This document shows positions 59,329 through 62,273 of a DNA stretch of 64,000 nucleotides, one piece after another. Position numbers and translations under genes: made by a program. Numbering within the stretch: position 1 is the first letter of the stretch; the number at the start of each line of letters is the position of its first letter. The notes beneath the pieces are model-generated. The model was not told the origin of the DNA and made no database searches. It worked only from the letters and a program-made list of their open reading frames with translations. The stretch lies in sequence record PP359570; one strand, written 5' to 3'. This DNA is from Escherichia phage ALITA.

Positions 59329-59733
59329 TTATTGTAGCTTAAGTGAACTGCGAAGACGTTCCTCTTGCTGATCACGAATATGTTGTGGAACCTCATGAAT
59401 TGAATCGTTACCGTGCCTATTCTCCACAACTAAAGAAATAACTTGATAACCAAACTCTTCAGCAAGAGTTAAATAAGGTTTAAGTTCTTTTTCTGTAGTA
59501 GAGGTATTAGAAACAATAATCTTTTCAACACCATACTGCATATATTTTTGTACTTTGACACGACACCATTGGTGTGCTTTATGGATATTCTCTTGTTTCC
59601 ACTCATACACACCATCTTCAGTGTAGTGGTATTGATCTGCCTCACAAATAGGCCAATGATTTTCAGAGATAATTTCTGCTACTGTAGATTTACCTGCACC
59701 TGAAACACCACGTAAAATGATAAGTTGTTTCAT
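59329..59733 (-). CDS. P-loop kinase, T4 Pnk kinase-domain-like
   Basis: LRGVSGAGKST Walker A; IIVSNTSTT...EFGYQV parallels T4 Pnk VIISDTNL...EYGWKV. Confidence 0.6.
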   Translation of the reverse strand: MKQLIILRGVSGAGKSTVAEIISENHWPICEADQYHYTEDGVYEWKQENIHKAHQWCRVKVQKYMQYGVEKIIVSNTSTTEKELKPYLTLAEEFGYQVISLVVENRHGNDSIHEVPQHIRDQQEERLRSSLKLQ

Positions 59734-60666
59734 TTAGCCTCCAAAGAAGTTTTCTATTTCTTTACGTCGCTCTTGTGGATCGAGAGCAGCCCATTGAGCC
59801 TTCGTAAATTTATTTCGAAGCCATTCTAGCAAAGTATAATATTCTTCGTCAACAATTTGTTTAGCATTGTTTGGGTTGTCCCAAATCATATCCCACTTCT
59901 TATTGCCACCACGCATAAGGAATTTCTTAGCAAGATAGTATGGTGACTTAATCTTTAAGAGTAAGTTAAACGGATAGTTTGTTTCACGAACAACAAAGCC
60001 TTCGTGTCTACAATGTTTAGACATTTCAACAACATCTGAAAATTTAATCATTGGATAAACTTCAGGACGTTTAAATTTTGTAATAGATGCAATCCCATCA
60101 AGAACACCTTCAGGTAACATGAAACTTGTCCCATCAAGATTTTGAATTCTTGCTCCAATTAAGTATGCGCCTGGTTCTTCTTCGACAATATGTGGATCAG
60201 AAGGATCACAGATTTCAAAAAGGAAAGTTGCTTTTGCACTTTCTGTCCACTTAATGAAATACTCTATGTCATCACACTCGGAAACAATACGGTTCTTGGC
60301 AATAGTTGCAAAGTCTGATTCTAGGCTTCCTGTTGTTGATACAACAAGTTTCCCTTTGTACACACCTACAGATGCCATAAAACCGTTTACTTTACGGACA
60401 GCATCTACAAATTCATCTCTTGGAAGATCTGTACCATTCTCAAAACGATTAAAGATTTTAGTAAAAGGCCAAATAACAATATTATCTTCTGAGTCAACAA
60501 CCAACCCACGACAATCTAAAAGTCGTTTGTCAACGTTCCACAAGTTATCCCAGAATACATTGTTTTTGTATTTAAGTACAGCAAGACCAGCATACTCTCC
60601 AGATTTAACTTCTTTTTTATGCACTAAACCTTTTGCAATCAGGTCATCACAATTGAACTTAGCCAC
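59734..60666 (-). CDS. RNA ligase (T4 Rnl1-like)
   Basis: DCRGLVV, TKIFNRFENG, motif I KVNGFM and STTGSLES parallel T4 RnlA ECRGIMF, EKFFNLNEN, KEDGSL, KSKGSIKS. Confidence 0.7.
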   Translation of the reverse strand: MAKFNCDDLIAKGLVHKKEVKSGEYAGLAVLKYKNNVFWDNLWNVDKRLLDCRGLVVDSEDNIVIWPFTKIFNRFENGTDLPRDEFVDAVRKVNGFMASVGVYKGKLVVSTTGSLESDFATIAKNRIVSECDDIEYFIKWTESAKATFLFEICDPSDPHIVEEEPGAYLIGARIQNLDGTSFMLPEGVLDGIASITKFKRPEVYPMIKFSDVVEMSKHCRHEGFVVRETNYPFNLLLKIKSPYYLAKKFLMRGGNKKWDMIWDNPNNAKQIVDEEYYTLLEWLRNKFTKAQWAALDPQERRKEIENFFGG

Positions 60667-60667
60667 C

Positions 60668-61219
60668 TTAATCTCCTTTGATTATCTTATGATGATCTAC
60701 AACAATAATATCACGCTTATCCATAATAGAGATGATTTCGTCAAAATGCAAGATTTTCCCGTGTGCATCCCAACCAACATCCAACATTTTCCCATACAAA
60801 TGATCAGGGAATGATCCGTGAGAGTGTCCGTGTAGCATGATTGATCCATGCCCTTGTTTATTCCAGGCAGCCATAGGGTAATGACTTAAGACGAAGAACA
60901 GCTTCTGATATTTCACTTCGTCATAATACACAACTTCTCCATACTCTGCAAGCACTTTTCTGTGTTTACTGTAATCATGGTTCCCAACACAGTAAGTAAT
61001 ATCCCCTTGGAGACGGGAAGCAATCTTACGGGTATCTTCTTCAGTCCCGAAACAGAAGTCCCCAAGATGGTACATCTTTACTCCTGGTGTTGTGGCACAT
61101 TTATTCCATGCTTCGATCAGTGCTTCTGTCATATGCTCCATATCTTCCCACGGGCGATATTCAGGAGCAAACTCTCGGATACGTTTGTGCATAAAATGCA
61201 AATCACTTGTAATAAACAT
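60668..61219 (-). CDS. calcineurin-like metallophosphoesterase
   Basis: SDLHFMH, GDFCFG, GNHD, HGHSHG motifs. Confidence 0.8.
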   Translation of the reverse strand: MFITSDLHFMHKRIREFAPEYRPWEDMEHMTEALIEAWNKCATTPGVKMYHLGDFCFGTEEDTRKIASRLQGDITYCVGNHDYSKHRKVLAEYGEVVYYDEVKYQKLFFVLSHYPMAAWNKQGHGSIMLHGHSHGSFPDHLYGKMLDVGWDAHGKILHFDEIISIMDKRDIIVVDHHKIIKGD

Positions 61220-61581
61220 TAGTATAATCCCTCGCTGAATAGTTCACTGTTGTGACCATTTCTTTCGTAGTTAATTTGTTTGGCGTTATCTGCAATGACA
61301 TAAGCATCTTTGCGACTCCACCAGTTATAATACTGATCAATAAACCCTTGATTATCAGGTAAGCAAAACAGTTTATCGATCAATCCTGCATCTTTTAAAA
61401 CATTAAGTTGTGCAGATAGTACAGGATTTGCATGCCTAACACAAGGAATAATTAACTCTTCACCATTGTTAAGAATATACTTGTTCGCAGCGCAGACTAT
61501 AACACGTTGAGCATAGTGATCCTCACCAATCCAAGTAAGAGGTTGGTAACAAATATCATGTTGATTAGTAGCGCACATCAA
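61219..61581 (-). CDS. hypothetical protein
   Basis: 120-aa ORF; ATG 61578 is likely the true start. Confidence 0.6.
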   Translation of the reverse strand: MMCATNQHDICYQPLTWIGEDHYAQRVIVCAANKYILNNGEELIIPCVRHANPVLSAQLNVLKDAGLIDKLFCLPDNQGFIDQYYNWWSRKDAYVIADNAKQINYERNGHNSELFSEGLY

Positions 61582-61727
61582 TTTTCTCCATACTCTTTTA
61601 GTCTATCAGCGAAAAAACTGTAATCAGGAAGTAAAAGATCATTACTCGTATCGCTCCAATTTTCTTCCTCTCTATAGATAAAATGCCCTTCATCCTCTTC
61701 TTGCTCTGACCAGACTGAGTAATGCAT
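61578..61727 (-). CDS. 49-aa acidic protein (hand-called)
   Basis: Fills the 61582-61736 gap; stop overlaps the next start. Confidence 0.35.
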   Translation of the reverse strand: MHYSVWSEQEEDEGHFIYREEENWSDTSNDLLLPDYSFFADRLKEYGEN

Positions 61728-61736
61728 AATACCTAC

Positions 61737-62273
61737 TTAATAGTTAACACGTTTAATTTCAACACCATAGGATGCAATAAAATTTTCCTTAGCTAACATA
61801 TATTTACCAGCAGCAGAAGGATTTGATGTATGAACATAGATAGTTTTAAGAGCATCCCATTCACCAGCGTACAACATACATTCTACATCTAAGAACGCAT
61901 GATAGCCTTCTTGATCTTCCCCAAGATCATTATCGAAGTGTATTTCTGAGATATTATTGAAATTATCTTCATCTGAAACAAAAGATGACCAATCCCCAAA
62001 AGATTTTAACCAAATGGCATCCTCATAACCATAATCTTTAGGATCTCTTAAATCGTCTAACCAAAGAATTTTAGCCACTATCAACCCCCCTTCCTGTTTC
62101 TCTTCTTTCCAAGTTTTACCTTTATCTACCAATTGCTTAGAAACAGCAAATCTTTCTCCATTGACATAAAACAGATAAAGAATAAAGGATTTTCCTATAG
62201 TTACAGTATCTACTACTTCTACACGCTTTACACCTTGCATGTATTTGGCTTTACCTGAATAAATAAGGAACAT
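61737..62273 (-). CDS. hypothetical protein; C-terminal half resembles receiver-like domain seen in RNA-repair loci (tentative)
   Basis: ILWLDDLRDP...HFDNDLGE...VHTSNP pattern (recalled, unverified). Confidence 0.55.
   Translation of the reverse strand: MFLIYSGKAKYMQGVKRVEVVDTVTIGKSFILYLFYVNGERFAVSKQLVDKGKTWKEEKQEGGLIVAKILWLDDLRDPKDYGYEDAIWLKSFGDWSSFVSDEDNFNNISEIHFDNDLGEDQEGYHAFLDVECMLYAGEWDALKTIYVHTSNPSAAGKYMLAKENFIASYGVEIKRVNY

Follow-up and report, generated by a model that had tools for sequence, protein, structure and literature searches.

A probable split RNA end-healing and sealing module of kinase, Rnl1-family ligase and metallophosphoesterase in a phi92-like phage

We analyzed a 64,000-nucleotide stretch of DNA from Escherichia phage ALITA (sequence record PP359570; referred to below as the window), a phi92-like Justusliebigvirus of the Stephanstirmvirinae. 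A run of minus-strand genes at positions 59329-62273 encodes a kinase related to T4 polynucleotide kinase (Pnk), an RNA ligase of the T4 Rnl1 family and a calcineurin-like metallophosphoesterase (MPE), and this set of genes probably serves to heal and seal broken RNA ends. The region from 59000 to 62600 shares 99.6% identity with Escherichia phage EmilieFrey (Bas61), and 55 phage records match over 80% or more of its length. Campylobacter jejuni is given as the host in five of the matching records, which is unexpected for Justusliebigvirus-like DNA and may represent contamination or mislabeling. The six open reading frames (ORFs) listed in an earlier note on this DNA were all recovered at the coordinates given there, each adjoining the next or overlapping it, by 0-10 nt. 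The genes of the cluster, with lengths in amino acids (aa), E values in brackets and the uppermost ORF divided as in its relatives, are as follows.

59329..59733, minus strand: standalone P-loop kinase, equivalent of phi92 gp095, 134 aa; AAA_33, phrog_505; predicted 5′-OH polynucleotide kinase
59734..60666, minus strand: Rnl1-family ATP-dependent RNA ligase, gp096 equivalent, 310 aa, GTG start; PF09511, phrog_562
60668..61219, minus strand: calcineurin-like MPE of the aq_1665 type, gp097 equivalent, 183 aa; phrog_547; predicted 2′,3′-cyclic-phosphate/3′-phosphate end-healing
61219..61581, minus strand: gp098-like protein of the T4 'Arn.3' family, 120 aa; phrog_839 (1.3e-46)
61578..61727, minus strand: gp099 equivalent, 49 aa, lineage-specific; phrog_18323 (1.3e-33)
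61737..62078, minus strand: cREC (cyclic-phosphate-processing receiver-like) domain, gp100 equivalent, 113 aa in relatives; PF20274
62079..62273, minus strand: gp101-like gene, 63 aa; phrog_15376 (4.3e-40 over residues 1-60 of the 178-aa ORF)

In GenBank, near-identical phages, EmilieFrey among them, carry these genes under labels such as 'RNA ligase', 'putative phosphoesterase', 'polynucleotide kinase' or 'putative RNA ligase / RNA repair'. NCBIfam yielded no model for the ligase, the MPE, cREC or the gp098-like protein.

The assignment of the ligase to the Rnl1 family is well supported because its catalytic motifs, its profile match to T4 Rnl1 and its predicted fold agree. The Pfam scan matched it to RNA_lig_T4_1 (PF09511) over profile positions 2-227 of 227 at 54.7 bits, well above the 28.3 required for gathering, and the PHROG scan to phrog_562, the T4 Rnl1 family (9.5e-67). 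The KVNG motif I to which the earlier note had drawn attention corresponds to K92-V-N-G95. An alignment of 24 family members, drawn from a family with more than 2,500 relatives, showed R53, K70, K92, G95, E151, E222, G223, K238 and K240 to be invariant and F72 to be near-invariant; the positions aligned to these in T4 Rnl1 are R54, K75, F77, K99/G102 (motif I), E159, E227-G228 and K240/K242. Nucleotidyltransferase motifs I (KxxG, with the lysine nucleophile), III, IV and V are thereby represented, as are R54, K75 and F77, which are specific to Rnl1. The position of T4 Rnl1 K119 is occupied by an invariant threonine in the phage ligase family. A single-sequence search of the Protein Data Bank (PDB) with the ligase gave no match, and the profile of the family reached T4 Rnl1 (2C5U; 2.2e-10, T4 residues 51-250) but not Trl1. 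The AlphaFold (AF2) model of the ligase has a pLDDT of 91.9, and its top ten Foldseek matches are fungal Trl1-LIG and T4 Rnl1 structures, with E values from 8e-13 to 3e-11 and TM scores of 0.61-0.65; Rnl3, Rnl2 and Rnl5 rank below both as fold matches.

For the neighboring kinase, the scans gave AAA_33 (1.8e-10) and phrog_505, a polynucleotide kinase family of PHROG (1.3e-9). As a single sequence it produced weak matches in the PDB, and a family profile was needed to identify its closest structural relatives. The best full-length matches of this profile were without exception RNA or polynucleotide kinases, namely Pnkp1 (4XRP; 2e-8), which is part of the Pnkp1-Rnl-Hen1 repair complex, T4 Pnk (1LY1; 2.2e-7), PSTK (3e-7), the kinase of Clostridium thermocellum Pnkp (7.6e-7) and mammalian PNKP (3e-5). 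All 26 family members compared retain G9, G14, K15 and D33, four residues of the P-loop GxxGxGK(S/T) and general-base aspartate signature, and D33 aligns to D35, the general base of T4 Pnk. The family has further invariant residues of its own, R8 and H113-x-V-P. These matches and residues bear out the Pnk-like kinase proposed earlier, and to judge from its sequence the protein is most aptly seen as a divergent offshoot within the Pnk clade.

The MPE matches the phosphoesterase family phrog_547 (8.5e-55) and contains all six motifs of a binuclear metal center, namely DxH, GD, GNH(D/E), H, GH and GHxH. Invariant in 28 family members are H8, G53-D54, G79-N80-H81, H113 and G131-H132-x-H134, with D6 near-invariant, and conserved residues specific to the family are H11, R22, W119 and D151. 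The family profile identified Aquifex aq_1665 (1XM7; 3.9e-23) as the sole strong solved relative and GpdQ (3e-3) as a marginal one. The earlier note had described a phosphoesterase of the bacterial Pnkp type and a phosphatase fold different from that of T4. The second point is correct, as the calcineurin-like fold stands against the HAD-type phosphatase of T4, whereas the first holds at one level only: the motifs place the protein in the superfamily of the bacterial Pnkp phosphatase, but its predicted family is that of aq_1665 and not the Pnkp/lambda-phosphatase/PrpE-ApaH clade. A search with the single window protein as query retrieved 11,297 cluster representatives of the MPE family at E ≤ 1e-3, most of them standalone proteins of about 180 aa.

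At the upstream end of the cluster, residues 69-157 of the 178-aa ORF (61737..62273) match PF20274, cREC_REC, at 49.2 bits, where gathering requires 27. This identifies the receiver-like domain that the earlier note had tentatively linked to RNA-repair loci. The domain has a receiver (CheY-like) fold and sits among RNA-repair genes with no histidine kinase; D8-D9, D49, V82-H83 and N86-P87 are invariant, with D51, T84 and S85 near-invariant, and a single-sequence PDB search gave no match. The family was named and tied to RNA ligases by Iyer et al. 2021 (Viruses 13:63, PMC7824862) and is experimentally uncharacterized (PMC9503650). Although a receiver-like C-terminal half had been recognized correctly, the description of one 178-aa protein did not hold, since in seven of seven relatives (EmilieFrey, Paula, inny, AV123, Eryne and the IMG/VR contigs L004 and L005) the ORF is divided into a gp101-like gene of 63 aa and, 2 nt apart from it, a cREC gene of 113 aa. 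The two frames are joined in the window because of one extra G in a minus-strand run of six at 62085-62090; in base-level alignments with two relatives, Paula has five Gs and EmilieFrey has GGGTG. Each of the 35 cREC homologs retrieved stands alone as a protein, and those of full length measure about 110-127 aa. Programmed frameshifting at the G-run was also considered and rejected, as no supporting evidence was found for it, and the gp101-cREC fusion is more simply explained by an error in the sequenced homopolymer length or by a private mutation.

In order to determine which of these genes travel together, six-frame ORFs from 68 IMG/VR loci harboring ligase relatives at 30-98% identity were compared with the window proteins and with hidden Markov models (HMMs) of their families. 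Within 10 kb of the ligase, the MPE was found in 65 of the 68 loci and the kinase in 62, at median gaps to the ligase of 115 nt and -3 nt, respectively. Gene order varies, with both MPE-LIG-KIN and KIN-LIG-MPE arrangements observed (LIG, ligase; KIN, kinase). By comparison, cREC occurs in 12 loci, 10 of which belong to the rV5/phi92-like group of about 145 kb, and the sirtuin occurs in 11, all from the rV5/phi92-like lineage. The rV5-like loci (L006-L010 and L015) show the order LIG-cREC-KIN-SIRT followed by a DNA ligase, and one contig unrelated to this group (L046) carries cREC-MPE-LIG-KIN contiguously. About 50 of the 68 loci have the kinase, ligase and MPE without cREC or sirtuin within 10 kb. 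In the window itself, the ligase, cREC, kinase, MazG and MPE genes all lie within 6 kb, and the sirtuin gene is 30 kb away.

Domain fusions connect the same activities. In Cardiobacteriaceae metagenome-assembled genomes and in one 243-kb phage contig, a protein of about 480-495 aa unites an AAA_33 kinase with an Rnl1-like ligase, and an aq_1665-type MPE comes directly after it; the loci are L076 (7446-8927 plus 8905-9576), L084, L097 and L105 and, for the phage contig, L066 (9404-10846). The window kinase and ligase also align to the two ends of a single protein family, phrog_8238, at positions 1-109 and 432-712, respectively. In about 28 cyanobacteria of the Leptolyngbyaceae, one chromosomally encoded protein of 712-732 aa has the architecture AAA_33 kinase-Metallophos-RNA_lig_T4_1 (bacterial genomes, loci L077-L108; for example L077 6708-8906 and L094 6768-8906). 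The healing half of this protein matches TIGR04075 bacter_Pnkp at 7e-53, with 180 bits against an equivalog cut-off of 750, and the protein appears to be a variant of Pnkp with a different ligase family. Its MPE domain is of the PrpE/ApaH type, and this Pnkp-like domain was not matched by the HMM of the window MPE family. The metagenomic protein P0156 (524 aa), which at 55% identity is the closest 50%-cluster representative of the window MPE itself, carries an Rnl2-family ligase domain as well, and two further representatives (P0184 and P0189) are fused to HAD_SAK_2, a 'Swiss Army Knife' RNA-repair phosphatase domain, although these three fusions may be gene-calling artifacts. Because of the adjacency in the 68 loci and the domain fusions, the comparison indicates that the widely conserved unit is the triad of kinase, Rnl1-type ligase and MPE rather than a sirtuin-centered set. 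Judged by their distribution, cREC, the sirtuin and MazG are lineage-specific additions.

Three further genes of the window bear on the interpretation and are listed here.

56552..57274, minus strand: MazG-like pyrophosphohydrolase; PRA-PH (3.2e-7), phrog_671
57472-58635: ATP-dependent DNA ligase, 0.7 kb from the kinase
28600..29412, minus strand: sirtuin of the SIR2 family, possible distant accessory; Pfam SIR2 (1.3e-22)

MazG was found in 14 of the 68 loci, 13 of them syntenic and rV5/phi92-like and one a weak match elsewhere. The SIR2-family gene, annotated in EmilieFrey as 'sirtuin family protein', is the first of a long minus-strand block, close to where both GC skew and strand switch (about 28 kb). 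It is overlapped by a 189-aa ORF (29400-29969, minus strand) that is labeled 'putative aminoacyl-tRNA synthetase' in EmilieFrey; this ORF showed no Pfam match and a weak, sub-cutoff NCBIfam match. In EmilieFrey, record positions 139344-145542, which correspond to the DNA from about 126 nt past the 3′ end of the window onward, hold a PRPP synthetase and a nicotinamide phosphoribosyltransferase for NAD+ salvage and then, on the opposite strand, 14 tRNA genes, including those for Lys, Asn, Tyr and Gln. These genes bear on the ideas of NAD+-dependent repair and of counter-defense by tRNA replacement. The 64-kb window itself contains no tRNA gene and matched no Rfam family. A promoter and terminator scan found 31 candidates against 30.6 expected from shuffles, which is no enrichment, and does not define a transcription unit.

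Two genes located between the MPE and cREC were considered as parts of the module and rejected. The gp098-like protein is a member of the T4 'Arn.3' family, which is widespread (1,541 phage records) but was found close to the ligase in just 3 of the 68 loci; gp099 was found by phmmer in 1 of 68 and was set aside as lineage-specific. Database labels for the gp098-like family are 'anti-restriction nuclease', 'tRNA processing enzyme' or hypothetical, its sequence gave no PDB match, and it adjoins the ligase in the distant contig L053. A gp103-like protein of 113 aa (62548-62889, minus strand; phrog_6208) is called 'transposase-like protein' in several records, showed no Pfam match and keeps its synteny with the module across 14 loci of the rV5/phi92-like type. 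A dTDP-rhamnose biosynthesis set of four RmlA-D-like genes, annotated in relatives, lies at about 40.8-44.1 kb of the window by offset from EmilieFrey bas61_0211-0214.

Cleavage of tRNA by defense systems, including PrrC, RloC, PARIS, retron-linked effectors, Cas13a and Cas12a3, is recognized as widespread, and phage T4 uses Pnkp and Rnl1 to reverse the cleavage of tRNA-Lys by PrrC. To our knowledge, phage countermeasures other than substitute tRNAs have been little studied outside T4. From the observed family memberships, catalytic-residue conservation, folds, adjacency and fusions, we infer all the enzymatic activities of the module, tRNA as a substrate and a role in counter-defense. We consider it probable that the core is a three-protein pathway for RNA end-healing and sealing, similar to bacterial Pnkp split into separate polypeptides, which would reverse RNA cleavage by host nucleases. 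In the first step, the aq_1665-type binuclear MPE would strip a cyclic phosphate or 3′-phosphate to leave a 3′-OH; the small P-loop kinase would then phosphorylate the 5′-OH, and the Rnl1-type ligase would join the 3′-OH to the 5′-PO4 through a K92-AMP intermediate. The split heal-and-seal kit suggested in the earlier note gains backing from the conserved adjacency and the fusion proteins. The Asp-based, receiver-fold cREC would be an add-on of the rV5/phi92 lineage that probably opens or removes cyclic, 2′- or 3′-phosphates or processes ADP-ribose cyclic phosphate. The likely role of the pathway is to undo cuts made in RNA, for example tRNA, by host abortive-infection or toxin nucleases, and such repair would complement the phage's own tRNA array.

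Several observations weigh against this pathway. Beyond motif V, the ligase extends for about 70 helical residues compared with about 130 in T4 Rnl1, and its profile alignment stops at T4 residue 250, leaving the C-terminal tRNA-specificity domain of T4 Rnl1 (residues ~255-374) unmatched; given the missing match and the shorter tail, the substrate of the ligase could be an RNA other than tRNA. The 26 kinase family members have no conserved arginine at the position of T4 Pnk R38, and the lid arginine ('ENRHG', the counterpart of T4 R126) is retained in one subclade only. For the MPE, the match to Pfam Metallophos_2 (20.6 bits) falls under the gathering score of 27, its profile matched no Pnkp or lambda-phosphatase chain in the PDB at E ≤ 0.1, and the aq_1665-type family is without any characterized member. 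In addition, the neighborhood also carries DNA-metabolism genes, several tRNA-targeting defenses rely on metal-dependent nucleases, for the products of which such healing would be superfluous, and we found no biochemical or genetic data on a phi92/rV5-type RNA repair module in the literature searched.

A different use of the same genes is the NAD+-dependent, Trl1/Tpt1-like route published by Iyer et al. 2022 (PMC9503650, section 3.7.3), in which cREC would open the 2′,3′-cyclic phosphate to a 3′-OH/2′-PO4 end, the kinase and an Rnl1/Trl1-like ligase would seal the break and leave a 2′-phosphate at the junction, the sirtuin would act as a KptA/Tpt1-like ADP-ribosyltransferase that removes this phosphate with NAD+, and the MPE and MazG would clear the resulting ADP-ribose cyclic phosphate. 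The ligase model fits fungal Trl1-LIG as well as T4 Rnl1, and cREC, sirtuin and MazG accompany the triad in rV5-like loci in the LIG-cREC-KIN-SIRT order; moreover, the window contains a SIR2-family gene, and the NamPT and PRPP synthetase genes for NAD+ salvage lie just past its 3′ end in EmilieFrey. Taken as a whole and as the main pathway, the route is nevertheless unlikely. It cannot be the core mechanism because the roughly 50 triads that lack cREC and sirtuin within 10 kb would be left unexplained by it and because sirtuin linkage is confined to a single lineage of about 145 kb, which represents shared ancestry and not independent recurrence. In the window, the sirtuin gene is 30 kb away, and the ligase sequence profile detects T4 Rnl1 and not Trl1. 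We also know of no sirtuin with 2′-phosphotransferase activity. A further reading, which we put forward as a tentative and rather doubtful one, is that the lineage-specific cREC and sirtuin, possibly with MazG and the NAD+ salvage genes, constitute a second, NAD+-dependent branch of RNA repair, and that the aq_1665-type MPE separately represents a new, very large family of RNA 3′-end healing enzymes. Here cREC would open cyclic phosphates, maybe through an aspartyl-phosphate intermediate as in HAD phosphatases, and the sirtuin would then remove the resulting 2′-phosphate in a Tpt1-like manner. If this second branch exists, both activities would be ones never before shown for the receiver and sirtuin folds.

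The enzymology of the three-protein pathway could be right and its counter-defense role wrong if the ligase served mainly in tail-fiber attachment, the second activity of T4 gp63, or in the maturation of phage tRNA or other RNA. The name of phrog_562, 'RNA ligase and tail fiber protein attachment catalyst', which has been copied into several GenBank records, and the large tRNA array of EmilieFrey agree with such a function. Tail-fiber attachment, however, requires no kinase and no phosphatase, but the two are retained beside the ligase in very distant phages and occur fused to it in bacteria, and the genes lie among those of early and middle nucleic-acid metabolism rather than among structural genes; we regard a mainly non-repair function as very improbable. 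Processing of DNA ends is another conceivable task, since T4 Pnkp also acts on DNA ends. The kinase and MPE would then work in the manner of mammalian PNKP for the nearby DNA ligase and recombination genes, with the 'RNA ligase' acting on DNA or RNA-DNA hybrids. The ATP-dependent DNA ligase gene only 0.7 kb from the kinase and the exonuclease and recombination genes close to the module fit this proposal, and a DNA ligase is present within 10 kb in 31 of the 68 loci. More than half of the loci are nonetheless without one, it is the Rnl1-family ligase and not the DNA ligase that keeps tight adjacency to the kinase and MPE, and all the fusions found join healing domains to PF09511, Rnl2 or HAD_SAK, which leaves DNA-end processing with hardly any probability in our estimation.

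The identification of the cluster is correct, but the cluster was already known in silico, both from GenBank annotations and from the work of Iyer et al. 2021 and 2022, where the same RNA-repair reading is given (PMC7824862, section 3.4.9; PMC9503650, section 3.7.3). New here are the triad as a conserved unit, the placement of the MPE in the aq_1665 family, the fusion proteins and the possible homopolymer artifact. The module is common, and it uses an uncharacterized phosphatase family together with an uncharacterized receiver-fold enzyme. Its biochemistry would define a second paradigm of phage RNA repair, give aq_1665-like proteins a function and test the chemistry proposed for cREC and the sirtuin. 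What the locus has to offer is the enzymology of its aq_1665-type MPE, its cREC and its sirtuin, not the genomic observation.

Among known systems, the fungal and plant Trl1 and Tpt1 pathway resembles the locus in the fit of the ligase fold to Trl1-LIG, the presence of a kinase, a candidate cyclic phosphodiesterase (cREC) and an NAD+-using sirtuin in the genome. It differs in that the Trl1 system uses a 2H cyclic phosphodiesterase whereas the candidate here has a receiver fold, and in that no Tpt1/KptA homolog is present here. Bacterial Pnkp, as in C. thermocellum Pnkp/Hen1 and the Pnkp1-Rnl-Hen1 complex, likewise combines a P-loop kinase, a calcineurin-like MPE and an ATP-dependent ligase. 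In contrast to these systems, the window encodes three proteins, an MPE of the aq_1665 family and a ligase of the Rnl1 type, and no Hen1 methyltransferase was seen.

T4 Pnkp and Rnl1 share with the window proteins the Rnl1-family catalytic residues, the P-loop and general-base aspartate of the Pnk-clade kinase, and the logic of healing followed by sealing. The T4 kinase, however, is fused to its phosphatase whereas the 134-aa kinase here stands alone, the T4 phosphatase is a HAD/DxDxT acyl-phosphatase whereas a binuclear MPE is found here, and the C-terminal region of T4 Rnl1 is about twice as long as that of the window ligase; the three genes of the window are contiguous. The same components recur in the sirtuin neighborhood type 2 described for phage V5 and Proteus phage Mydo by Iyer et al. 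2022 (Viruses 14:1977, PMC9503650), who count MazG in this neighborhood type. The shared parts are the T4-like tRNA ligase, cREC, the nucleotide kinase, MazG, the calcineurin-like phosphoesterase and a sirtuin in the genome, although in type 2 the sirtuin lies in the neighborhood and here it is 30 kb away. The rV5-like loci of our survey are clear homologs of the window cluster, with cREC placed between the ligase and the kinase there and upstream of the MPE here.

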